Assembly (NCBI GenBank): GCA_964618625.1
Contig: CAZUBI010000001.1
Span: 65,940 to 129,939 of the forward strand
Direction: 5' to 3'
Length of the DNA stretch: 64,000 nucleotides
Origin: an uncultured Candidatus Saccharibacteria bacterium
GTDB taxonomy: Bacteria > Patescibacteriota > Minisyncoccia > UBA6257
Both the position numbers and the translations under genes were made by a program. Positions 14,571 to 40,860 of this stretch are shown here, piece after piece. Position 1 is the first letter of the stretch; the number at the start of each line of letters is the position of its first letter. Under the pieces are notes generated by a model. That model was not told where the DNA came from, searched no databases, and saw only the letters and a list, made by a program, of their open reading frames with translations.

Positions 14571-15890
14571 ATGAATAGAATTCTAACAATTCTGTCAGTA
14601 ATCCTAGTTTTAGGAATCGGAATATTTTTTGGTTCTCGTTTTTTCCAAAGATATTTAGAGTCCCAAGGAATTTTAGAGGCCCGAGTTCATCCTGCTGAAG
14701 CTACTTTAAAAATTAATAATAAAATTTATCAGAATAAACAAGGCATTTTTAAGATTAGATTACACCCTGGAGAACATTCTGTCTCCTTTTCATGTCCAGA
14801 TTATTCATTTTTGGAAGATAAAGTAAAAATTGAAAGTAATAAAACAACTAATCTTAATCATATTTATCTATTCCCTAATAGTTGGCCTAAAGAAAGAATT
14901 ATAACAAATGAAAAAATCGAACATTTCTATTTGAGCCCGGATTCTAATCGCATTCTTTTCATAAAAAAATCTTCTAATTATGATTGGTATATTTTTGATA
15001 GAAGCACAAAACAAAAAGAATACTTTCATAAAACCGCTTCTTTGCCATATGATATTGTTTTTTCTCCAAAAAAGATTCTAATTCATTCAGAAAAAAATAA
15101 TTGGGAAATTGTATTTTTACCAAAAAGCCTTATTAAAAATGGCATCTCTTTAAACACTCCATTTAAGGAAGCGCTGGATCAAGCGGAATTAAAAGAAAAA
15201 CAAACCTCTCTGACTATAAACCAAGCTATTTTCTACCTAAAAAATGATGGCGACATAATCGTTAAAACTACTGATGCAATTTATCTTTTTAATTTTCTTA
15301 CAGAATCTATAGAAAAAATATATGAAGGCAAAAGCTCCACTTTTATATTTGAGAACTATTATATCTATTTTATAAAAGAAAATGGGGTCTTTGCTAAAAT
15401 TTCTTTGGAGACAAAAAAAGAAATGGAAACATCTCTGTATAGTTTTTCTCTTGAAGATTTAGAGAAAGCTAAAATTAGAAAAGAAAAAAGTGAAAACAAC
15501 TTTTTAATTATTGAAGGATCAAAAAAAGCTTATTATTTAAAAGAATTTGAAAATTTACCAAAATTAATTGGTGAAAATGTTATTGATGGCATTTTTTCTT
15601 TAAACAAAAAAGAAATATTATTATATTCAAAGGATAAAATTGAAATTTATAATCCAGAAAGCGAAATTAAGTATTCTAAAAAACTTTATTCTGATATTCC
15701 AGTCACTTGGTTTCTTAATAACAACTATGTTTTATCCTTAAAAGATAACTTGCTTAATATTTATTCGCTCAAAAATAATAAAACCTGGCCTATTGCCAGT
15801 AATATAAAAAATAATAACTTTTTCTACGACCCTTCAATAAATTATATCTTTTATCTTTCCGATTCAGGTATAATAAAAGTATCTCTGTAA
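14571..15890 (+). CDS. membrane-anchored hypothetical protein with TolB-like beta-propeller-type repeats
   Basis: N-terminal TM helix, then a repetitive beta-rich pattern (YLSPDSNRILF, FSPKKILIHSE...). Confidence 0.4.
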   Translation: MNRILTILSVILVLGIGIFFGSRFFQRYLESQGILEARVHPAEATLKINNKIYQNKQGIFKIRLHPGEHSVSFSCPDYSFLEDKVKIESNKTTNLNHIYLFPNSWPKERIITNEKIEHFYLSPDSNRILFIKKSSNYDWYIFDRSTKQKEYFHKTASLPYDIVFSPKKILIHSEKNNWEIVFLPKSLIKNGISLNTPFKEALDQAELKEKQTSLTINQAIFYLKNDGDIIVKTTDAIYLFNFLTESIEKIYEGKSSTFIFENYYIYFIKENGVFAKISLETKKEMETSLYSFSLEDLEKAKIRKEKSENNFLIIEGSKKAYYLKEFENLPKLIGENVIDGIFSLNKKEILLYSKDKIEIYNPESEIKYSKKLYSDIPVTWFLNNNYVLSLKDNLLNIYSLKNNKTWPIASNIKNNNFFYDPSINYIFYLSDSGIIKVSL

Positions 15891-24870: not shown

Positions 24871-26268
24871 TTAGTCAATAAAAAGGTTGATTTTGTCTAA
24901 AGAATTTGGAACTTTTCTTATCCACAATGGCCGAAGTTTTACTTCTACATCTTTTATCCCAGGATTAGCCTCAAAAATCTGATTTAACTCCTTTTTATCT
25001 TTTCCAACAACAAGTTGCTTTATTTCCTCCAAAGATAATTTATGACACACAACTTGATTTGTTTTAATTGACATTCTCATCGTACCTTTACTAAAGTCTG
25101 TTTTTAATTCTAAATATTCTAATTCTGGCTTTTGACAATAATGATAATTTTCATCCTTGTCTTTTTCGAGAATTCCTTGTATGTATTCAATCATACTATC
25201 TTCATCGAACGCAATAACTTTAATTTCACCTTCAACACTAACTGAAAACTTTTCACGATAATCTCCAATACTGGCATCACTACTCAAATTAGTGAGATTT
25301 ATACTGCTTTTTGCTCCTGGTAATACTTTTAATTCTTTTGGTTTTTTTGGCATTTTATTTTCTAAATCCTGATTAATAGAATCCATAACTTTTTCAAAAA
25401 TAATTTCTTCTGCCCCTTTTAAGTCTTCTGAAGTTACCAAAGGAACTGAAGCAAAAGCCCCTCCTGTCATCGCTTTAGTAGAAGCACCATAAAAGCCATC
25501 AAATTTTGATGTTCCTTCAAATCCTGGAATAGTAAATTTACAATCAGGCAAATTACAAACTTCTATATTATAATCAGTTCCTGATTTATCTGCAGTAACT
25601 TTTACATCAATCGTAGATCGTACAAGTTTTCCATTTTTAGTAGTAGCTCCTGGAATAACAATACGGGAATCTAAGCGAAATATCTTATGATCAGGTGTTT
25701 CAAAACGGGTTGTAGCTACCAAAATTTGAGGAGAAGTTGAGTAATTATTATATATAGTAATTATTCCTTTGGCTTTTCTTTCGTCTTTGCCCTGTCCAGA
25801 ACTTGAAAATTCTTGCGTCTCTTCTGCTTTAAAAACAAATGAATTTCCAGGAATTATTGCTTTATTAAAGTCTATTGAGGAAACACTTGTATCTACCAAA
25901 ACAACGCCTGAAAAAGGCATTTCTATCTTCTTTGTAGTGATATTAATTTCCGCCTTAGCTAAAAATACAAACCCTAAATAATAAAAGGCAACCAAAGAAA
26001 AAAATACACCAAGAAGAATTATAGTCTTTTTATTAATCGCCATCTTCTTCTTTGCCCATTTTTCTTTAAAACCAGAATTAATCACCGTTATACTCTCTTC
26101 ACTTTCTGTTTTAGTATCTTCAATCTTTCTCTCTTGCTGTAATTTATCGGCCAAATGAATTGGGATTTCTTTTTCCTCAACTTCTTTTTTGCCAGACGAA
26201 TAATTATTTAATTCGTGTGGAAAAAAGATATCTTTAACTTTTCTTTTCTTTTTTTGAGAATTTTCCAT
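24871..26268 (-). CDS. hypothetical membrane-anchored protein (465 aa) with a large extracytoplasmic domain
   Basis: Single TM around residues 92-112; no recognisable motifs. Confidence 0.4.
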   Translation of the reverse strand: MENSQKKKRKVKDIFFPHELNNYSSGKKEVEEKEIPIHLADKLQQERKIEDTKTESEESITVINSGFKEKWAKKKMAINKKTIILLGVFFSLVAFYYLGFVFLAKAEINITTKKIEMPFSGVVLVDTSVSSIDFNKAIIPGNSFVFKAEETQEFSSSGQGKDERKAKGIITIYNNYSTSPQILVATTRFETPDHKIFRLDSRIVIPGATTKNGKLVRSTIDVKVTADKSGTDYNIEVCNLPDCKFTIPGFEGTSKFDGFYGASTKAMTGGAFASVPLVTSEDLKGAEEIIFEKVMDSINQDLENKMPKKPKELKVLPGAKSSINLTNLSSDASIGDYREKFSVSVEGEIKVIAFDEDSMIEYIQGILEKDKDENYHYCQKPELEYLELKTDFSKGTMRMSIKTNQVVCHKLSLEEIKQLVVGKDKKELNQIFEANPGIKDVEVKLRPLWIRKVPNSLDKINLFID

Positions 26269-29571: not shown

Positions 29572-30879
29572 TTACTTTAAAAACTCTTTTAGCCTATCAG
29601 ACTGAGAATGCTCTTTGAGTTTTTCTAAGGTTTTAGCTTCAATCTGTCTAATTCTTTCTCGAGTCACACCAAAAGATTTTCCTACTTCTTCTAATGTATG
29701 GGTGATTTCATCTTTCAAGCCAAACCTCATTTTTATAATCTCTCTTTCTCTTTCAGATAATTCACTCATAATTTTTTCTAATTCGATTTTTAACAATTCT
29801 CTTGCAGCATGGCTATCAGGAGTTATGGCTTTCGTATCTGAAATAAAATCTCCTAACTGGCTGCCGCCATCTTCATCCCCTACTGGTTGATTTAATGATG
29901 AAGTGCTTTGAGAAATTTTCATAAGGTAAAGAACTTCTTCAACTTCTTTCCCCATTTCAGAAGCTATTTCTTCTGGTAAAGGATCCCTTCCCAATGTTTG
30001 AGCCAATGCCCTTCTTGTTTTTAAATATTTGGTAATTGTTTCAACCATATGTACGGGGATACGAATCGTCCGTCCTTGATCAGCTAAAGCCCGTGTAATC
30101 GCTTGTCTAATCCACCAAGTGGCATAAGTGGAAAATTTAAAACCTTTCTTGTAATCAAATTTATCAACTGCTTTAGAAAGACCGATATTGCCTTCCTGAA
30201 TCAAATCCAATAAGCCCAAATTTCTGCTTCGGCCGATATAACGTTTGGCAATAGAAACTACTAAACGGAGATTAGCTTCAATCATCTTCCGTCTTGCTTG
30301 TTCATCTCCACTATCTACTTTTTTTGCTAATTCCCTTTCTTCCTCAGCAGTTAAAAGAGAAACTTTTCCTATCTCCCTAAGATATGACTGAACTGCCCCA
30401 GATAATACCCTAGAACTTGAAACCCTTAAAGCATCTTCTAATTCTTTATCAGAAACTTCTTTTTTTGGTATCAATAAGTCCCCACTTTCTACTACTTCAA
30501 TATTAACTTCGGCTAATGCATCATAAAGTTTTTCTAAGAGATTAATATCTGCTTCAATGCGTGGAAAATATTTTAAAATCTCATCTTGAGTAATAAATCC
30601 TCGCGATTTACCCCTTTCAATTAATATCCCTATCTTTTCTTGTATTTTCTCTTTTTTGGACTGTTGCCCTTTTTTCTTAATATTCTTGATCTTCTTGCTA
30701 CCCTTAATCTTCCTAATTTTTTTGATTTTCCTCACTTTCCTTACTTTTTTTGTTTTCTTAATGATTTTTACTTCCCTTTTCTTCTTTACAACTTTCACCT
30801 TTTTTGCTCGCCTCACTGAAATTTTAGCAAGGCGGGTTTTTCCTTTTTTGACTTTTTTCTTTTTGTTTCTTTTAATCAT
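29572..30879 (-). CDS. rpoD: RNA polymerase sigma-70 factor RpoD with a ~75-aa Lys/Arg-rich N-terminal extension
   Basis: Sigma-70 regions 2-4 ([13 protein letters not shown]...); N-terminus is a KKxK repeat tract. Confidence 0.85.
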
Positions 30880-33100: not shown

Positions 33101-34654
33101 TTAAGTATCCTGACCAAAAATATTTTTAATTACTTCCTTTATTTCTTCTTTTTTTGGTTTAATTTTAGATTGAGTATACTGAACAGAATTTGTATGCGCT
33201 GAATTTTTTCCTCTTTGTCTTCGTATTTCTTTAAAACATTCATCACAATAAACAGGCCTGTCAGGATCTGGCCGAAAAGGCACAATAATTCTTTTTCCAC
33301 ACTGAGAACATACAGCTTCCCAGCCTTCTTTAACGCCAGCTTTTCTGCTTCTAGTATCTCCTGCCTTGGAGCTTGGAGAAAAATCCAATAACTCCCAATG
33401 CGCGATATTCTTTTCAACTTCTTGCCGCAAAGCCGCATAATGCTCGCGTGAATACTGAATCATTTCCTGTATAAATGACTGCTTTGGCAAACTGGAAGGC
33501 GGTATGTTCATTGCTGAAAAACTCTTGGATAAAATACCGTCAATCATTAACTTTATATAAAAATTATAATTTGGGAGGTTAATTAAGTTCTCTTTTGAAA
33601 ATTCTGGGGCGAAATATTTTTCTAATAATTCTGCGTCTTCAGGACCTAATCTAAAAGAAACCAAAGTTCCTATATTGCCAAAAATAGAATCTTTAACCTG
33701 CTCATTAAGTTGAGCTATATATTGGTGAGCTAAAATTAAATTTAAACGATATTTTCTAGCTTCGGCAAAAATAGAAGCAAATGATTCAGTGGAAAAATTT
33801 TGAAATTCATCTACATATAAATAAAAATCTTTTCTTTGCTCTTCAGGAACATCTATACGACTCATTGCAGCTAATTGTATTTTTGTAACTAAAAGAGCCC
33901 CCAAAAGACTAGAATTATCCTCCCCGATCATGCCTTTTGATAGATTGGCTAAAAGAATTTTACCTTCATCCATTATTTGCCTGATATCAATCTTTGATTC
34001 TTTCTGTCCAATAATATTCCTAATTAAAGGGTTGGAGATAAATTGTCCAATCTTATTTTGAATTGGGGCAATTGCTTCTGTCGCAAAACGGACATTATAA
34101 CGAGCAAACTCTCTTTCCCAAAAAGATCTAACTATGGGATCTGTCACCTTTTTCATTACTGCTTTACGAAAATCTTCGTCAGAAAGCAATCTGTTTACAG
34201 CCAAAAGCGTTGCGCCAGGGTATTCTAAAAGAGCCAGTAAAGCATTATTTAAAATATATTCCATTCTAGCAGACCATACATCCGGCCAGATTTTTTTAAA
34301 AACACCCATTAAACCCGCCACAACCAAATGTCGATATTCTACTGAAACTTCTTCAATAACATTAAAAGCAATCGGCCATTCAATATCGCCAGGATTAAAA
34401 TAAACCACATCTTTTATTCTGTTTTCAGGAATAAAGTAAAGAATTCTATTTATCAATTCTCCATGAGGATCAATGACACATACGCCTTTGCCATTATTAA
34501 TATCCTGCATAATCATATTCTCCACCATCGTTGTCTTGCCTACCCCGCTCTTTCCAACTAAATACATATGCCGACGCCTATCGTCAGTTTTAATTCCAAA
34601 TCGCTGAAATTCATCCCTGAAATTTGTTATCCCAATATGATTTATATCGCCCAT
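33101..34654 (-). CDS. soluble VirD4/TraG/TrwB-like (type IV coupling-protein-like) P-loop ATPase with C-terminal CxxC..CxxC zinc ribbon
   Basis: HMYLVGKSGVGKTT Walker A followed by VIDPHGE (TraG/VirD4-like DPxGE), DEFQNF Walker B, and terminal CSQCGK...CDEC ribbon; no TM segments. Confidence 0.5.
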   Translation of the reverse strand: MGDINHIGITNFRDEFQRFGIKTDDRRRHMYLVGKSGVGKTTMVENMIMQDINNGKGVCVIDPHGELINRILYFIPENRIKDVVYFNPGDIEWPIAFNVIEEVSVEYRHLVVAGLMGVFKKIWPDVWSARMEYILNNALLALLEYPGATLLAVNRLLSDEDFRKAVMKKVTDPIVRSFWEREFARYNVRFATEAIAPIQNKIGQFISNPLIRNIIGQKESKIDIRQIMDEGKILLANLSKGMIGEDNSSLLGALLVTKIQLAAMSRIDVPEEQRKDFYLYVDEFQNFSTESFASIFAEARKYRLNLILAHQYIAQLNEQVKDSIFGNIGTLVSFRLGPEDAELLEKYFAPEFSKENLINLPNYNFYIKLMIDGILSKSFSAMNIPPSSLPKQSFIQEMIQYSREHYAALRQEVEKNIAHWELLDFSPSSKAGDTRSRKAGVKEGWEAVCSQCGKRIIVPFRPDPDRPVYCDECFKEIRRQRGKNSAHTNSVQYTQSKIKPKKEEIKEVIKNIFGQDT

Positions 34655-34715
34655 ATTAATATAGTTTTTTAATTCTCAATTTTTAATATTCCAATGTATA
34701 GAGTTTGAGGCAAAG

Positions 34716-34775
34716 ATGATTGTTGAAAAAAACTGTAGCGATTAGCGTGTTTTTAAAACAATCATCTGAGCCTAA
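34716..34775 (+). repeat. family-A palindromic intergenic element, copy f
   Basis: agatgattgttGAAAAAAACTGTAGCGATTAGCGTGTTTTTAAAACaatcatctgag. Confidence 0.75.
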
Positions 34776-34783
34776 CTCGATTA

Positions 34784-35974
34784 CTACTCCACTGGTAACC
34801 CTGTTGGCGGTTCCCCTTTCTTACTCAAAACTCTAGTTAATGTAGGAGTTACAACTTTTAATGCTGGGAAATGGTAAACAGTCGCTAATTCTTCTGTATT
34901 TAAAATTATGGGATCTTGTGTTCGTGCTCGCTTCAAGCAACTTTGATAAAGATCCATCTTTTTCAAAAATAATCTTCTGTTCTGTAAAAATCTGGTTTTA
35001 AGAATTGTGGAAGCGTCTTTGTTAATCTTAAAACCATTCAAGTTTTTTGAATTAAATTGCTTCAAAAAAGCCATAAAAGCGGAAATATTAGATTCATTAA
35101 AAATCTTTTTTGGAGAAATATAAAGTAACCTTATGCTTGTATTAAATGATAATTGTTTTATTTTATTTTCAATTGATTTAATTACATCCTTTTCTCCAGA
35201 TGAAAGGACTATAGATGGCTCATTTTTCTTCTCTTCTTTTGTGGGCCAAACCAAAGGTTCAAATAGTCCTACTAAAAGATTTCTAAAAAAAGCACCGATC
35301 CAATCCAGCCAAGTAATTTTTTCCTCCTTTTTGCCTAACATAGTGTTAGTTTGTTTCTTTCCTTCATTTATAAACTTTTCCTCATCTTTATCAGAAAGAG
35401 GCTTAATAAGAATCTCTAAAATAAACCATTCAGATTTTTGAAGCTTGGCAATACTTTCTGCAAAACTTGATATTGGATCAATTCTTTTCTCTTCTTTTAA
35501 TTCCTCAAAATAAGAATAAGTTTTAATAGGGTAATAATTTTCTTTTTCTAAAATAATTTCTGTTCCCCATAAATCAAAATCCTTATTTGGCAAATGAGCT
35601 GGAAGACGTAAAAAATAATCATCAATTTCTTCAATTTCTATTTCTGGATATTGCGCGTAAAACTGTGACTCTATTAAATTTTTATATTCTTTAGGAACGC
35701 GAACAATAAAATATAGCTCTCTATCCATTCCAACCAGTTCTAAACAAATATGGCCTTTTTCTATAACATGAAAACCATTAAATACTTGCTCCATTGCTTT
35801 AGGGGTTTGTAAAATCTCACGATTAATTTTCACTTGCAAAGTAACCCAATCTTTTATCTCTTCTTTTTCTTTTTCTTTTTTTTCTTTATACTTTTTATTT
35901 AAATCAATAAAAAACTTCCCCAAAATAATAAGGGCTAATAGCCACCAAAATTCACGAATAATCTCTCCTAACAT
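34784..35974 (-). CDS. hypothetical N-terminally membrane-anchored protein (396 aa), overlapped/coupled with the neighbouring genes
   Basis: One N-terminal TM helix; its start overlaps the stop of the upstream HTH gene (ATGA); 129 nt upstream of the VirD4-like ATPase. Confidence 0.4.
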   Translation of the reverse strand: MLGEIIREFWWLLALIILGKFFIDLNKKYKEKKEKEKEEIKDWVTLQVKINREILQTPKAMEQVFNGFHVIEKGHICLELVGMDRELYFIVRVPKEYKNLIESQFYAQYPEIEIEEIDDYFLRLPAHLPNKDFDLWGTEIILEKENYYPIKTYSYFEELKEEKRIDPISSFAESIAKLQKSEWFILEILIKPLSDKDEEKFINEGKKQTNTMLGKKEEKITWLDWIGAFFRNLLVGLFEPLVWPTKEEKKNEPSIVLSSGEKDVIKSIENKIKQLSFNTSIRLLYISPKKIFNESNISAFMAFLKQFNSKNLNGFKINKDASTILKTRFLQNRRLFLKKMDLYQSCLKRARTQDPIILNTEELATVYHFPALKVVTPTLTRVLSKKGEPPTGLPVE

Positions 35975-37077
35975 TAAACCTCTAATATTTTATAAGACCT
36001 AATTAAGCTATAATATTTATTCGGCAATTTTTTAAAATATCTCTTATTATGAAGATTTAAAATAATAGTATTATCTTTAGCCATTCTGCGTTTTTTAACT
36101 TCCTTGATGATTGTTTCCTGTTTTAACGACTTTCCTGCCTCTTTCAAGATATCTTTAATAACATTGATTATCTTTCCGGGTTTATAACCCCATTCCCCTA
36201 ACGCATAAATTCCCCTTCCAATAAGAACAAAGCGAGAATCACGAATTAGTTCATTGTGCACTGTTTGAACACATACTTTCTTCTGCCAAGAATGAGAAGC
36301 CACAGATGCTGGAATAGTTATTGCATTACATTCATTAAGGCGTTTTGTAATATCAGAAAAATGTAATGGCTTTTTAGAATGTTTCATTATCAAATATGCC
36401 CTATCACGAGCGCCAGATGGATCTATTTCCATCCAATCAAATAAACCATACTCGCCAAAAGGATTCATGCCAACCTTCTTTGATATTTCTAAACATGCCT
36501 TTAGTTCTTCCTTATTAATACTAGATGAAACATTATTTTTAACCGAAGCTAATATTTCGTCTATCAGACAAGTTGATTGTTTTTTCTTAAAGAACCCTTC
36601 TATATCTTTAATATTCTTATAAATTTTATTTTTGGAAATCCTGGAAAAATGCCAAAAACTATTGTACAAATCATTTTCTTCTTCAAATGAAAAATTAGGA
36701 TTTAATGCCAATAAAAATCTAATCACCGACAAATTTCCTTTTGATTCTTTAAACTGTTTATCTATTTTTACAAGAAATCTCTCGTTCTCATCTACTCCTC
36801 TACTCTGTCTTAAAATTTGCCCAGCTTGTTTTATAAAAACATCAGCCATTTTTAAAACAGGCTGTTTTTTAACAGTTTTTAAAGCTACCTCTATAATTTG
36901 CCTGATTCTTTCTCGGGTAACTTTATAATCCCGACCAACTGCCTCTAATGTTTTAGGATCGTTATTATCTAAACCAAATCTTTTCTTAACAATGTCCTGC
37001 GTGCGAGAGGGTAAAATAGCAATGATTTTAAGAGCCAATTGGTATGGACTCTCTTTATTTAAATTAGAATTTTTCAT
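35974..37077 (-). CDS. DNA-binding protein: N-terminal sigma-70 region-4-type HTH plus C-terminal HARE-HTH-like winged helix
   Basis: N-terminus [41 protein letters not shown] (also in RpoD region 4 here); C-terminus HFSDITKRL...NELIRDSRFVLIGRGIYALGEWGY resembles the HARE-HTH of RNAP delta. Confidence 0.45.
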   Translation of the reverse strand: MKNSNLNKESPYQLALKIIAILPSRTQDIVKKRFGLDNNDPKTLEAVGRDYKVTRERIRQIIEVALKTVKKQPVLKMADVFIKQAGQILRQSRGVDENERFLVKIDKQFKESKGNLSVIRFLLALNPNFSFEEENDLYNSFWHFSRISKNKIYKNIKDIEGFFKKKQSTCLIDEILASVKNNVSSSINKEELKACLEISKKVGMNPFGEYGLFDWMEIDPSGARDRAYLIMKHSKKPLHFSDITKRLNECNAITIPASVASHSWQKKVCVQTVHNELIRDSRFVLIGRGIYALGEWGYKPGKIINVIKDILKEAGKSLKQETIIKEVKKRRMAKDNTIILNLHNKRYFKKLPNKYYSLIRSYKILEV

Positions 37078-37113
37078 GTTTGTTAATAATTAAAACTTAA
37101 TAGTTTTAATTCA

Positions 37114-37140
37114 ACGTTCTTGAGCAAAGCCACGTTTGAC
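37114..37140 (-). terminator. imperfect hairpin downstream of secF (possible terminator or processing site)
   Basis: GCAAAGCCACG-TTTGA-CGTGGCGAAGC; weak U-run. Shares the motif GTTCTKTGAGCAAAGC with 17183..17200. Confidence 0.3.
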
Positions 37141-37194
37141 GTGGCGAAGCAAAAGGTTGTTATATTATAATTAAAGCAAGAATTTAGCAAAGAG

Positions 37195-38076
37195 TCAACC
37201 CTTTTTAGACCAATCATATAATAATGGAGCAGCAAGACAAATTGAAGAATAAGTACCTATTATTACACCGCTAATCATTGCTATCACCAGTATTTTAATA
37301 GAAATAGGGCCTAAAAAATATAAAGCTATCAAAGGAAAAGTTGTTGTAAGGGATGTATTTAAAGATCGCAAAAGGGTTTGATTAATGCTTAAATTGATAA
37401 TTCCAGTCAAACTTTCTTTTGTTTTTAAACGTATATTTTCCCTAACCCTATCAAAAACTACTATTGTGTCATGAACAGAATAACCGGCTACTACCAATAA
37501 GGCCACCAAAAAATCCGAATTTACTTCCCAGCCTTTTAATTTTCCCAACAAAGAAAACAAACCTATAATGAACACTGCATCGTGCATCAATACTAAAACT
37601 GCCAAAATCCCGTAACGATAAGATGGAACACGAAAAGAAGAATGGTGAAAAGCATAGGAAAGATATGCTAAAATTCCAAAAAAGACCAAAAGAACCGCCC
37701 AAATAGATTTGGATTTCAATTCTTGACCAATAGAAGGGCCAATTGACTCAAATTTTCTTTCCTGAATTAAAGGAATTATCCCTTGTAATCCTTTAAATAA
37801 TTGAACGTGTTTTTCTTCGGAAATATTAGAAAAACGTAATATTAAACTATCTTCGTTTGTGGTTTGAACATTAATTTGCCCTAATCCTTCATTTTCTAAA
37901 TAATCAACAATTTTAATCGCATCATTTTTAATATTTAAGGATGTTATCTCCCAAAGACTTCCACCAGTAAAATCAATTCCCCAATTAAACCCAAAAATCG
38001 AAAGACATAAAAAAGAACCAGCAATCATTGCTATTGAAAACCCATAAAAGATGTTCCGTTTATTAATAAAATCCAT
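37195..38076 (-). CDS. secF: protein-export membrane protein SecF
   Basis: SecF topology and sequence; follows secD. Confidence 0.85.
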   Translation of the reverse strand: MDFINKRNIFYGFSIAMIAGSFLCLSIFGFNWGIDFTGGSLWEITSLNIKNDAIKIVDYLENEGLGQINVQTTNEDSLILRFSNISEEKHVQLFKGLQGIIPLIQERKFESIGPSIGQELKSKSIWAVLLVFFGILAYLSYAFHHSSFRVPSYRYGILAVLVLMHDAVFIIGLFSLLGKLKGWEVNSDFLVALLVVAGYSVHDTIVVFDRVRENIRLKTKESLTGIINLSINQTLLRSLNTSLTTTFPLIALYFLGPISIKILVIAMISGVIIGTYSSICLAAPLLYDWSKKG

Positions 38077-38078
38077 AA

Positions 38079-39401
38079 CTACTTATTTGTTATTAATGTC
38101 TGCAAAAATATCCTTGTGATATACAAAGCGGTAATTAAACTCACACCCACTCCAATTGCCAATGTAACAGAAAACCCTCTTATCATACTTGATGTAAAAT
38201 AATAAAGAATTACAGCAGAAATTATTGTAGCGATATTAGAATCTCGAATAGCTGGCCATGATCTTTGAAAACCGTCTTCCATAGAAATCCTCATCGGTTT
38301 ATTTTTTTTAATTTCTTCCTTGGCATGTTCAAAAATTAAAATATTTGCATCCACAGCCATACCAATAGAAAGAATAAACCCGGTAATACCCGCTAAGGTA
38401 AGAGTCACTGGTAAGGCTTTAAAAATGCCCATTGTTAAAATAACATAGATTATTAAAGAAATTGAAGCCAAAAACCCCGGCATACGATAAATCAAAATCA
38501 TAAATATAAGAACTAAAACAAATCCTAAAAGGGCCGCTTTAGCAATTTTCTGAATCGATTCTTCGCCTAAAACAGCGCCAACTGATTGTTGAGAAATTAA
38601 ATTAATTGGGACAGGTAAAGCGCCTTGGTTCAATCTCGTTACTAATTCTTTTGCTTCTGATAAACTAAATCTTCCAGAAATCTGGGCCTTGCCTGAAGGA
38701 ATTTCTTCCCGTACTATAGGAATACTAATTGGATAATTATCTAAATAAATTGCTAGTGGTTGCCCTATATTCTTTTTTGTCAAAGCAGCAAAAATCTTTG
38801 TACCTTCATCATTAAATTGAAGATTAATTATAGGTAAAGAAGTATTTTGATCAAAACTCAATTCTGCTCTTTCTAAATATTGTCCTGTTAAAGAAGTCTG
38901 TTTAAAATATGGATCAGTCTGCATGATTCTTAAATCAGAATTTTCCTTTTTCGCTTCTTCCTCTTGTAATTCTAATATGGCTTTAGCCTCCTCTTCTGTA
39001 CGAACCTCTTTAAATTCTAAATAAGGAGTTTCTCCAATCATTTTTATTGCTTCTTGAATATCTTTAATTCCGGCTAATTCCACTATTAAACGCCATTTTT
39101 CTCCACTTCTATTTATTTGCACACGCGGTTCTCTAACCCCTGAATAATTTATACGCCTTTCTATTACATCTCTTAAACCATCCATTGCTGAAGCATAATC
39201 AGAAACTTCAATATTATTTAAATCAGCTTCGTAAAGTAAAAGTGTTCCGCCAGAAACATCCAATCCAAAGCTAAAAGACCTGTCAAAAAAACGGGGAAGT
39301 TCAATCCCCCTTTCTTTTAATCCATCAGGATAAACAAAAGCCCCCAATAAAATGGTGACTATAAAAATACCAATAATAATTAATAACTTTTTGTAGTTCA
39401 T
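38079..39401 (-). CDS. secD: protein-export membrane protein SecD
   Basis: SecD periplasmic domain plus 6 TM C-terminal region. Confidence 0.85.
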   Translation of the reverse strand: MNYKKLLIIIGIFIVTILLGAFVYPDGLKERGIELPRFFDRSFSFGLDVSGGTLLLYEADLNNIEVSDYASAMDGLRDVIERRINYSGVREPRVQINRSGEKWRLIVELAGIKDIQEAIKMIGETPYLEFKEVRTEEEAKAILELQEEEAKKENSDLRIMQTDPYFKQTSLTGQYLERAELSFDQNTSLPIINLQFNDEGTKIFAALTKKNIGQPLAIYLDNYPISIPIVREEIPSGKAQISGRFSLSEAKELVTRLNQGALPVPINLISQQSVGAVLGEESIQKIAKAALLGFVLVLIFMILIYRMPGFLASISLIIYVILTMGIFKALPVTLTLAGITGFILSIGMAVDANILIFEHAKEEIKKNKPMRISMEDGFQRSWPAIRDSNIATIISAVILYYFTSSMIRGFSVTLAIGVGVSLITALYITRIFLQTLITNK

Positions 39402-39799: not shown

Positions 39800-40729
39800 C
39801 TATTTTGCTTTTTCTGAGAGAAAAGCCATCAGTGTTGCATAGTCTTGTATATTGTTGACCACAAAATTCTTGTCAATTTGTTTTATCAGTTCAGAGATAA
39901 CTTTTCCCGGCCCAAATTCAAGATAAGATTTGACTCCATTGTCTGTAAACCAATTTATACAAAACACCCATTTTACTAAAGATGTAACTTGTTTCACCAT
40001 AGTTTTTTTGATTTCTTCAGAACTGCCATGAGGCTGTCCAGTAACGTTTGCCACTACAGGTATTGAAAGAGGTTTTATGTCTATGCCGTTAAGAAAATTC
40101 TCCAGTTTTCTCGCAGCGGATTTCATCAATGAAGAATGAAATGCGCCTGCGACATTAAGTACAATCACGCTTCTGGCGTCCATCTCCTTTGCAATCCTCT
40201 CAGCCTCTGCAATGCCGGTTTTTTCGCCCGACAAAACCGTCTGTTCCAGTGAATTAAAATTGGCTATTTCTATCCCCGTTTTTTTGCAAATCTCTTCCAG
40301 TTTTTCCATGGGAAGTCCAATAATACTGACCATTCCACCCTGTTTTTCCTCACAAGCTTCCTGCATAAAACGGCCACGGGCTTCCAGTACACGCAAAGTA
40401 TCTTCAAACGAAAGACCACCTGCAACATGAAGTGCGGTCCATTCGCCCAGGCTAAGCCCCGCCATTCCTTTAAGCACCGGGTTTCCCGCTTCTTCTGCGA
40501 ACGCTGTGTAACAAGCCACACTGATTACAAAAATTCCCGGCTGACAATTACTTGATTCTGTCAGTTTAGATTTCGGACCCTCAAAACAGATTTTTGAGAG
40601 GTTATATCCAAGAACTGCATCAGCCTTATCAAAAAGCATTTTACATTCAGGGTATGCTTCAACAAGATCCTTTCCCATTCCAATATATTGCGCGCCTTGT
40701 CCTGCAAAAACAACAGCTTTATCGTTCAT
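39800..40729 (-). CDS. fabD: malonyl-CoA:ACP transacylase (FabD); start probably the internal Met (MNDKAVVFAGQGAQ), alternative start at 40819
   Basis: FAGQGAQY...GLSLGEW...AGAFHS are FabD motifs. GC content is visibly higher than the surroundings. Confidence 0.8.
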   Translation of the reverse strand: MNDKAVVFAGQGAQYIGMGKDLVEAYPECKMLFDKADAVLGYNLSKICFEGPKSKLTESSNCQPGIFVISVACYTAFAEEAGNPVLKGMAGLSLGEWTALHVAGGLSFEDTLRVLEARGRFMQEACEEKQGGMVSIIGLPMEKLEEICKKTGIEIANFNSLEQTVLSGEKTGIAEAERIAKEMDARSVIVLNVAGAFHSSLMKSAARKLENFLNGIDIKPLSIPVVANVTGQPHGSSEEIKKTMVKQVTSLVKWVFCINWFTDNGVKSYLEFGPGKVISELIKQIDKNFVVNNIQDYATLMAFLSEKAK

Positions 40730-40784
40730 AACTCTCTCCTTTCCCTGTTCAGGGTTTTTAAAAATTTTAAATGTGCAATCCACG

Positions 40785-40860
40785 CTTGGTGCCCCCAGGA
40801 GGAATCGAACCTCCATCAATAGCTTAAAAGGCTACTGCTTTTCCGTTAAGCCATGGGGGC
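40785..40860 (-). tRNA. tRNA-Lys (anticodon UUU), encoded CCA
   Basis: Hand-folded: acceptor GCCCCCA/TGGGGGC, D-arm GCTT/AAGC, anticodon stem GTAGC/GCTAT with loop CTTTTAA, T-arm GGAGG-TTCGATT-CCTCC, ACCA end. Confidence 0.8.

Follow-up and report, generated by a model that had tools for sequence, protein, structure and literature searches.

The 64,000-nucleotide stretch of DNA analysed here (the window; positions 65,940 to 129,939 of contig CAZUBI010000001.1, from an uncultured Candidatus Saccharibacteria bacterium placed by GTDB in the Minisyncoccia) carries, directly after secD-secF on its minus strand, three co-oriented genes for a protein with a sigma factor region 4 and a HARE-HTH winged helix (gene 1), a DUF8128 protein (gene 2) and a soluble P-loop ATPase (gene 3). 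We give a probability of about 0.5 to the reading that this cassette is a domesticated type IV coupling protein (T4CP) split into two genes and accompanied by a dedicated nucleic-acid-targeting partner, most plausibly feeding this lineage's type IV secretion system (T4SS). The cassette is a vertically maintained, domesticated core module and not a plasmid leftover, because the trio is collinear and fixed after secDF in most of the related loci examined and the ATPase is better conserved than SecD. No description of the cassette or of DUF8128 turned up in literature searches on DUF8128, on FtsK in Parcubacteria and on HARE-HTH combined with sigma in Patescibacteria, and the relevant prior paper solely counts orphan T4CP homologues and notes that exaptation is a possibility (PMC12102498).

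Results

Organisation of the cassette

Gene 1 (35974..37077, minus strand) encodes, by its open reading frame (ORF), Pfam matches and family alignment, 367 amino acids (aa) comprising a sigma-70 region 4, a helical linker, the HARE-HTH domain and a second winged-helix-like segment. Gene 2 (34784..35974, minus strand) specifies a 396-aa DUF8128 protein that, from its ORF, AlphaFold2 model, hhalign comparisons and fold matches, corresponds to the N-terminal half of a long-form coupling protein, here detached from the rest. Gene 3 (33101..34654, minus strand) specifies a soluble P-loop ATPase of 517 aa that resembles TrwB/VirD4, contains an inserted all-alpha domain and ends in a zinc ribbon (ORF, Pfam, AlphaFold2, Foldseek). 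The three co-oriented ORFs described in the original prediction, which had been made from the letters of the window, are all there at these positions; the ATGA overlap it gave for genes 1 and 2 is actually a 1-nt overlap (TAATG), and genes 2 and 3 are separated by a 129-nt spacer. The upstream neighbours kept with the cassette are secD-secF (37195..39401, minus strand; secD 38079..39401, secF 37195..38076), so that the minus-strand order is secD, secF, gene 1, gene 2, gene 3, a diacylglycerol-kinase-like gene, dnaG and rpoD. The GC content of the cassette is ~31%, the same as that of its flanks, and composition is uniform across the stretch.

A coupling protein apparently in two pieces

Judged by sequence comparison, genes 2 and 3 are the two halves of a long-form coupling protein known from phages and from monoderm conjugation systems, because the same two modules are fused in gp156 of Bacillus phage G and in a Bacillus subtilis plasmid protein. 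Residues 15-318 of gp156 (825 aa) align with DUF8128 (hhalign 97.6%, E 2.7e-12) and residues 378-786 with the ATPase (99.9%, E 2e-34), and the family phrog_5156 (824 positions) likewise spans both, the gene 2 protein at positions 49-323 and the ATPase at 408-805. The plasmid protein (WP_213380696.1, 913 aa, on NZ_OX419568.1) has a DUF8128 domain (97.6%) followed by the ATPase in the hhalign comparison, and its gene lies immediately upstream of that for a replication-relaxation relaxase, with TcpE and a separate large ATP-binding gene in the VirB4 position downstream. SPO1 gp27.4 (906 aa; NC_011421.1 92636-95356) is a divergent member of the fused family with the same pattern at weaker strength, a decayed fused copy is found on a Pontibacillus megaplasmid, and a relative occurs in at least 55 Bacillus phages. 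A homologue on an Embleya plasmid is flanked by a relaxase and, on the opposite side, by PrgI and a VirB4-like ATPase, the hhalign match between DUF8128 and this T4CP being weak (41% probability). In the representative search the best 150 matches were all unfused proteins of ~400-550 aa, the fused forms having come through PHROGs and through phage and plasmid searches.

Several observations on these relatives stand apart from the split itself. In the jumbo phage G the gene for gp155, a VirB4-like ATPase with Pfam P-loop_TraG and AAA_10 matches, lies directly upstream of that for the fused gp156, so that a phage genome carries a VirB4 and coupling-protein pair (NC_023719.1 89194-93336). SPO1 gp27.4 is flanked by a ‘partition protein’ gene and by a gene annotated ‘replication initiation by nicking’. 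Plasmid NZ_CP081110.1 of Sulfitobacter mediterraneus encodes a 395-aa motor-only homologue (99994-101181) that shares 41% identity with the window ATPase, more than do the plasmid copies from Firmicutes, actinobacteria or archaea; its gene has a recombinase gene and transposase genes around it and no DUF8128 gene alongside, and may reflect horizontal transfer involving a Patescibacteria-type gene. The B. subtilis plasmid protein was not equated with the T4CP of pLS20, whose gene 48 (786 aa, two transmembrane helices) is not beside a relaxase gene and whose locus differs.

Conservation in related genomes

A pattern scan that took one genome per species showed that DUF8128 relatives are encoded in at least 557 genomes, and 80 species-level loci with 30-63% identity were kept. 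Gene 1, the DUF8128 gene and the ATPase gene are present, collinear and co-oriented in 72 of the 80 loci, an arrangement far beyond chance given that the loci are independent at the species level, and the gene-neighbourhood check proposed with the original prediction has thus found the trio to be syntenic in relatives. Gene 1 adjoins the DUF8128 gene in 76/80 loci, the median gaps being 33 nt between genes 1 and 2 and 16 nt between genes 2 and 3, and secF is immediately upstream of gene 1 in 52/80 loci (median gap 68 nt). The genes downstream differ (dgkA/dnaG/rpoD, efp or mnmA), and two contigs of ~1 Mb carry the order secA ... secD-secF-gene1-DUF8128-ATPase. The exceptions to collinearity are mostly contig ends, and two loci are truly without an adjoining ATPase gene: in L019 (2394-3740) gene 1 and the DUF8128 gene are present with no ATPase gene within 3.9 kb downstream, and in L077 (6848-8083) the DUF8128 gene stands alone between genes for MetRS and a YceG-like protein.

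Where the five genes occur together (41 loci), the median identity with the proteins of the window was 59% for the ATPase, 49% for SecD, 40% for SecF, 35% for DUF8128 and 34% for gene 1. The ‘conjugation relic’ offered among the original suggestions does not fit an ATPase more conserved than SecD at a fixed housekeeping site after secDF in most of the sampled relatives; in this lineage the cassette behaves like a core operon. Pairwise-distance correlations (mirror-tree style) among SecD, SecF and the three cassette proteins were positive and modest (0.28-0.70); the divergence is star-like, so they are uninformative. No VirB4-like, relaxase, PrgI or TcpE relative was found by phmmer, at limited sensitivity, in the 64-kb window or in ~7 kb around the 80 loci, which bears out the absence of relaxase and VirB4 genes noted earlier for the window and extends it to the relatives.

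The named homologues come from metagenome-assembled genomes (MAGs) of Paceibacteria, Parcubacteria and Minisyncoccia, and proteins identical to those of the window are encoded on a 533-kb contig; the window is accordingly taken as part of a Patescibacteria (CPR) chromosome. The organism labels of many MAG records are unreliable (locus L005 is labelled Saccharibacteria, yet is 63% identical to the window protein), and we claim the cassette solely for the Parcubacteria-type lineages named in the records, which include Azam-, Lipton-, Portnoy-, Nealson-, Wolfe-, Yanofsky-, Sung-, Wildermuth-, Niyogi-, Moran-, Magasanik- and Kerfeldbacteria as well as Spechtbacterales and Minisyncoccales.

The gene 3 motor

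The ATPase motifs read in the original prediction, a Walker A motif, a DPHGE box and a DEFQNF Walker B, are all in the translation, as HMYLVGKSGVGKTT, VIDPHGE and YVDEFQNF. Walker A spans G34-K-S-G-V-G-K-T41 (34532..34555, minus strand), with G34, G37, G39 and K40 invariant in the family, and Walker B, L-Y-V-D282-E283-F-Q (33800..33820, minus strand), was assigned from the alignment invariants and from alignment to TrwB. R300 and Q311, invariant after Walker B, align with the Arg and Gln behind the DEL box of TrwB, which would be an arginine finger and a sensor. K40, D282, E283, R300 and Q311 are all invariant, and the ATPase alignment has ~100 invariant positions. Pfam models scored above their gathering scores (in brackets) for TrwB_AAD_bind at 49.1 bits (20.5), T4SS-DNA_transf at 28.7 (20.1), TraG-D_C at 26.3 (22) and DUF87 at 34.6 (23.2), as did zf_Tbcl_2, and a block of helices between the two Walker motifs (aa 105-230) is where the TrwB_AAD_bind model of the all-alpha domain matches. 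Against the PDB, the ATPase family profile matched TrwB (7.7e-7) and DotL (3.7e-5) confidently and HerA weakly (0.018), and the AlphaFold2 model (pLDDT 81.7) had TrwB as its best Foldseek match (E 2.7e-13, TM-score 0.62, target-normalised), followed by Cag-beta, DotL and HerA. The proposed membership of the type IV coupling-protein clade is therefore upheld, TrwB being at the top of both the sequence-profile and the fold matches, and the HMM searches place the protein in a translocase family of P-loop proteins.

Other models fitted less well or not at all. The best NCBIfam T4CP equivalog, NF045973, reached 52.9 bits against a cut-off of 250, and the TraD models were far under theirs; the Pfam search gave no AAA_10 or CagE_TrbE_VirB match and, at E <= 0.1, no FtsK_SpoIIIE match; and VirB4 chains were absent from the PDB profile search and from the top 50 fold matches. 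Nor did we find any hydrophobic or transmembrane-like segment, in agreement with the earlier remark that the N-terminal transmembrane anchor is missing. By these comparisons the motor is T4CP-like and T4CP-descended, yet a distinct split, chromosomal form. A C-terminal ribbon is also present as predicted (CxxC-x17-CxxC, aa 449-473; 33236..33310, minus strand; zf_Tbcl_2 7e-14, TIGR04272 1.5e-14), its spacer being 17 residues rather than the 16 first counted (C449xxC452-x17-C470xxC473, the TIGR04272 pattern). It occurs in 37 of 66 full-length orthologues, with a spacer of 17 every time, and zinc binding by a domain of the zf_Tbcl_2/TIGR04272 type has been shown for small proteins of Methanosarcina (PMC12704099).

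The DUF8128 protein of gene 2

The annotation PF26449 (DUF8128) is attached to the cluster of the window protein itself and to all 120 homologues among the matches listed, although local scans of the gene 2 protein with Pfam, NCBIfam and PADLOC gave no match, and a PDB sequence-profile search with the DUF8128 alignment found none even at E 10. At its N-terminus lies a transmembrane helix (aa ~5-27; 35894..35962, minus strand), seen as a hydrophobic 19-mer with a Kyte-Doolittle value of 1.78 within a modelled helix at residues 2-38; a Lys-rich stretch, predicted to be cytoplasmic, follows directly, and the N-terminal transmembrane feature is present in 65/84 full-length orthologue ORFs. The rest of the protein (~350 aa) folds in the model as a soluble alpha/beta domain without a P-loop, which the Lys-rich segment, together with the fusion to a cytoplasmic motor in relatives, would place in the cytoplasm. 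The label ‘membrane protein’ thus applies to the single anchor helix and not to the bulk of the protein, which is a soluble, probably cytoplasmic domain. The fused homologues back the suggestion that the middle gene supplies the anchor in trans, with the correction that it apparently encodes mainly a domain like the N-terminal part of VirB4 and not just an anchor.

The AlphaFold2 model (pLDDT 82.4) gave nine PDB matches below E 1e-3 in Foldseek, all of them to TrwK/VirB4 of the R388 T4SS (probability 1.0, TM-score 0.35-0.42). Among the predicted structures of BFVD the matches were gp156 (5.5e-18), two more Bacillus phage proteins, the VirB4-like gp155 (4.5e-8; TM-score 0.41) and a ‘type IV transporter component’; hhalign found nothing between DUF8128 and phage G gp155. 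The N-domain of TrwK comprises residues 15-400 and mediates dimer and hexamer contacts, and VirB3, with two transmembrane helices, wraps around it (PMC9259494). Because of its similar size, the lack of a P-loop and the TrwK fold matches, we infer from the model that the DUF8128 soluble domain corresponds to the VirB4 N-domain.

The protein ends in a conserved tail with the motif EELAxxYHFP ... KKGEPPxxLP (34787..34894, minus strand; invariant E362, L363, A364, H368, P370, P390, L393 and P394), which is modelled poorly (pLDDT < 50 at aa 374-389) and which the fused B. subtilis plasmid protein also has, shortly before its ATPase domain. It is a candidate docking motif for the ATPase that would replace the covalent link. 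A conserved amphipathic or hydrophobic helix was also observed within the soluble domain at aa ~222-240 (35255-35311, minus strand; WLDWIGAFFRNLLVGLF); the equivalent segment scores as transmembrane-like in phage G gp156 and in the Pontibacillus homologue, and the helix may dip into the membrane.

The gene 1 partner protein

Both domains first assigned to gene 1 proved correct. Pfam Sigma70_r4 matches aa 19-71 above its gathering score (E 4e-10), and HARE-HTH matches aa 227-296 (36190..36399, minus strand) slightly below threshold (E 1e-4, 23.1 bits against a gathering score of 25.9), this domain being recorded in most gene 1 homologues. The region 4 segment (aa 17-72; 36862..37029, minus strand), which also has NCBIfam region-4 matches, is homologous to aa 369-424 of the window's own RpoD as had been claimed; at 46% identity over 56 aa it is not near-identical to it. 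The alignment of the gene 1 family has three conserved blocks, namely region 4, HARE-HTH and a further, basic winged-helix-like segment; the -35 recognition helix T-R-E-R-x-R-Q-I and the HARE-HTH block QTVHNELIxDxRFVLxGRGxYAL are invariant, and the family profile matched region 4 of primary sigma factors in the PDB with E down to 1e-19. We found no characterised example of region 4 and HARE-HTH in one protein in the literature. Among the loci examined, the association of this gene with the other two is confined to Patescibacteria.

Two simpler identities were rejected. Gene 1 is not a sigma factor, as regions 1-3 are absent and the NCBIfam sigma matches span aa ~7-84 at scores far under their cut-offs. 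It is not the delta subunit of RNA polymerase (RNAP) either: the NCBIfam delta model TIGR04567 scored 31.6 bits against a cut-off of 42, the HARE-HTH domain is internal and the basic winged-helix-like segment follows it. An acidic tail is characteristic of delta, and no acidic C-terminal tail is evident in the gene 1 sequence.

Spacers and remaining window features

The 129-nt spacer between genes 2 and 3 (34655..34783, minus strand) bears a hairpin (GATGATTGTT ... AACAATCATC; RNA fold -28.4 kcal/mol, z = -3.8 against shuffles) with no U-tract and no Rfam match. It is lineage-specific, since the gap is ~16 nt in most other species, and it might set the ratio of the two halves. Inspection by eye of the spacer between secF and gene 1 (37078-37194, minus strand) gave a promoter-like pair, TTGACT-17-TTTAAT, which is absent from the output of the promoter scan; after it come two stable hairpins, GCCACGT...ACGTGGC and another that is rich in AT (-24.8 kcal/mol, z = -3.8). 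Promoter-like sites were no more frequent than in shuffled sequence, and no terminator-like sites in the between-gene spacers and no Rfam matches were found.

Twenty other large ORFs of the window were scanned with Pfam, of which 18 are housekeeping genes, including those for pyruvate phosphate dikinase, AlaRS, GluRS, LepA, GlmS, Mur ligases, FtsW, MurG, MurJ and enolase, and none is a T4SS gene. The two without a Pfam match at E 1e-5 lie at 24871-26268 (465 aa) and 14571-15890 (439 aa). PADLOC gave weak single-gene matches (mad8 at 2.7e-15, HerA, and MzaA on region 4) with no partner genes, and a known defence system was rejected on these grounds. The RpoD of the window has an N-terminal extension of ~85 residues, nearly all Lys or Arg with Val or Ile, before the usual sigma regions (30620-30879, minus strand). 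The ORF at 39800-40819 (minus strand), in the sole 2-kb bin of raised GC (36.5% against ~31%), carries the motif GQGAQYIGMG, from which we presume a resemblance to malonyl-CoA:ACP transacylase (FabD); it may have been acquired from a foreign source, fatty-acid synthesis being usually described as absent from this lineage.

Discussion

With TrwB, VirD4 and TraG (R388 TrwB, PDB 1E9R; DotL; Cag-beta) the cassette ATPase shares an FtsK/HerA-superfamily P-loop motor that has both Walker motifs, the Arg and Gln behind the second of them and the inserted all-alpha domain. It differs in having no transmembrane domain of its own, the single transmembrane helix being on the separate DUF8128 protein, in the C-terminal zinc ribbon of about half of its family, and in being chromosomal with no T4SS or relaxase gene linked, more conserved than SecD and far below every NCBIfam T4CP equivalog cut-off. 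The long-form DUF8128 proteins (B. subtilis plasmid, phage G gp156, SPO1 gp27.4) show the same order of DUF8128 and ATPase, including an ELAxxxHFP / K..PP motif before the motor, but they are one polypeptide where the cassette has two genes, their ATPase identity is 25-30%, their N-terminal transmembrane helix is absent or elsewhere, the plasmid copy sits in a conjugation locus by a relaxase and a VirB4-like ATPase, and none has a sigma-4/HARE partner. VirB4 (TrwK of R388), which VirB3 keeps at the membrane, also consists of an N-domain of ~350 aa followed by a motor, and TrwK chains are the sole confident PDB matches of the DUF8128 model; the motor half of the cassette is, however, T4CP-like and not like the VirB4 C-domain, and the likeness of the N-domains is structural only.

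Further comparisons concern the targeting concept and the partner protein. FtsK/SpoIIIE, with its gamma winged helix, and Streptomyces TraB embody the concept of a membrane-tethered ring ATPase guided to DNA by a winged helix, though the cassette has no FtsK_SpoIIIE match and carries its DNA-binding modules, which are of other families, on a separate protein. HerA is alike in the DUF87 match (34.6 bits) and in providing second-tier fold matches, and unlike in that no HAS-barrel was reported and no nuclease gene (NurA, Sir2) adjoins the cassette. The gene 1 protein combines an RpoD/SigA-like region 4 with the HARE-HTH fold of the N-domain of RNAP delta (RpoE, Firmicutes); unlike primary sigma factors it is without regions 1-3, and unlike delta it is below the cut-off (31.6 vs 42) and holds both modules in one protein.

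As to how the cassette might work, the DUF8128 protein would tether and organise a hexameric ATPase at the inner membrane face, its flexible conserved C-tail probably docking where the covalent linker once was. By analogy with the relaxosome accessory proteins that engage plasmid T4CPs (PMC8829557), the gene 1 protein would bring the substrate to the motor, this being perhaps DNA with a -35-like sequence or RNAP-bound DNA, and in those family members that have it the zinc ribbon may add a contact to nucleic acid or protein. The motor would energise the handling or transfer of DNA or nucleoprotein at the membrane, and its most plausible outlet would be a chromosomal, conjugation-derived T4SS encoded elsewhere in the genome. 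The T4SS of Patescibacteria is inherited vertically and goes back to conjugation systems of monoderms; 2,918/3,035 of their genomes have T4CP homologues and 2,417/3,035 have VirB4, and with just 148 of 5,713 T4CP homologues near virB4 the authors raise exaptation as a possibility (PMC12102498). That the motor feeds this T4SS is favoured because the simplest history is one in which the coupling protein was domesticated together with the T4SS and then relocated, and we rate this particular step at somewhat short of even odds.

Several points weigh against a split T4CP of this kind. The distance-matrix correlations among the five genes are modest, and the synteny of secDF is nearly as strong as that of the cassette, so that part of the linkage within it may be inherited gene order. 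The resemblance to the VirB4 N-domain is at the level of the fold (TM-score ~0.4), with no sequence signal against gp155 or the PDB, and the sigma-4/HARE gene is missing beside all non-Patescibacteria homologue loci examined (phage, plasmid and archaeal). No relaxase, channel or nuclease gene was found linked to the cassette in the loci examined, and the DNA-translocation apparatus of the original prediction, with no DNA-processing enzyme or channel gene linked, stays at the level of inference. Pilus biogenesis is not known to need VirD4. In Southlakia a T4CP homologue, not necessarily of the DUF8128 type, is reported to be non-essential, and the T4SS of that organism is essential (PMC12102498), a result compatible with both the feeding of a T4SS and an autonomous role.

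Such an autonomous role, in which the split T4CP is a housekeeping motor that works without a T4SS, is possible, but we consider it doubtful. The motor could pump DNA while tethered to the membrane, whether in handling the chromosome at division or in DNA uptake, or it could link RNAP or promoter DNA to the membrane beside Sec, with the sigma-4/delta-like protein as the targeting subunit. The greater conservation of the ATPase than of SecD, the fixed site after secDF with secA close by in some genomes, and the lack of detected T4SS genes within 7 kb in the 80 loci all speak for it, as does a region 4 of primary-sigma type joined to the fold of the RNAP delta subunit. Among the 3,035 genomes T4CP homologues (2,918) are also commoner than VirB4 (2,417), but this gap of 96% vs 80% could stem from MAG incompleteness and two T4CP paralogues per genome; moreover, known T4CPs act via a T4SS channel, and DUF8128 has one transmembrane helix with no channel-forming partner linked. 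A more specific version, which we judge unlikely, is a lineage-specific machine independent of any T4SS, in which a sigma-4-mimicking, delta-fold protein tethers RNAP or promoter DNA to a membrane-anchored coupling-protein ring beside SecDF. Gene 1 could instead be a transcriptional regulator only, one that controls its own operon or that acts globally by binding -35 elements or competing with sigma, leaving DUF8128 and the ATPase as the machine, with a substrate that is perhaps protein; the T4CPs of effector-translocating T4SSs do move proteins (PMC12857230), gene 1 stands first in the cassette and has classic HTH modules, and phage, plasmid and archaeal homologues do without it. This seems quite improbable when gene 1 adjoins the DUF8128 gene in 76/80 loci with a median gap of 33 nt (and a 1-nt overlap in the window), when the gene 1 protein (367 aa, three nucleic-acid-binding modules) is bigger than one would expect of a simple operon repressor, and when the ATPase retains the all-alpha domain that is, per Pfam, the DNA-binding domain of coupling proteins (TrwB_AAD_bind). 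Decay of an integrated conjugative element or prophage, or a HerA/mad8-type anti-phage defence module, is largely refuted and very unlikely indeed: the weak PADLOC matches to mad8 (2.7e-15) and HerA, the homologues in phages and plasmids and the decayed Pontibacillus copy are set against intact ORFs with ~100 invariant ATPase positions, native GC of ~31%, a chromosomal site constant in most of the 80 species where defence islands are variable, and the absence of any integrase, relaxase, nuclease or methylase found nearby.

Patescibacteria, whose genomes are tiny, account for a large part of bacterial diversity, and because they keep this three-gene block so faithfully it should do something important. 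Thousands of ‘orphan’ coupling-protein homologues far from T4SS genes have been left unexplained (PMC12102498). The split long-form T4CP with a DUF8128/VirB4-like N-domain gives many of these orphans an anatomy, a fixed genomic home after secDF and an unexpected partner in the sigma-region-4 and HARE-HTH protein, and it provides structural and evolutionary context for a domain of unknown function. Its fused relatives, in Bacillus phages and plasmids, are accessible to genetics and offer a way to learn the role of the N-domain. Were the domain assignments to hold, the cassette would preserve a VirB4-like N-domain with a VirD4-like motor, intermediate between the two T4SS ATPase families. If the motor acts on DNA or RNAP without a secretion system, a conjugation ATPase would have a cellular role that is new, and a T4SS-independent machine, if real, would constitute a dedicated transcription- or nucleoid-to-membrane coupling or chromosome-handling device in ultrasmall bacteria.

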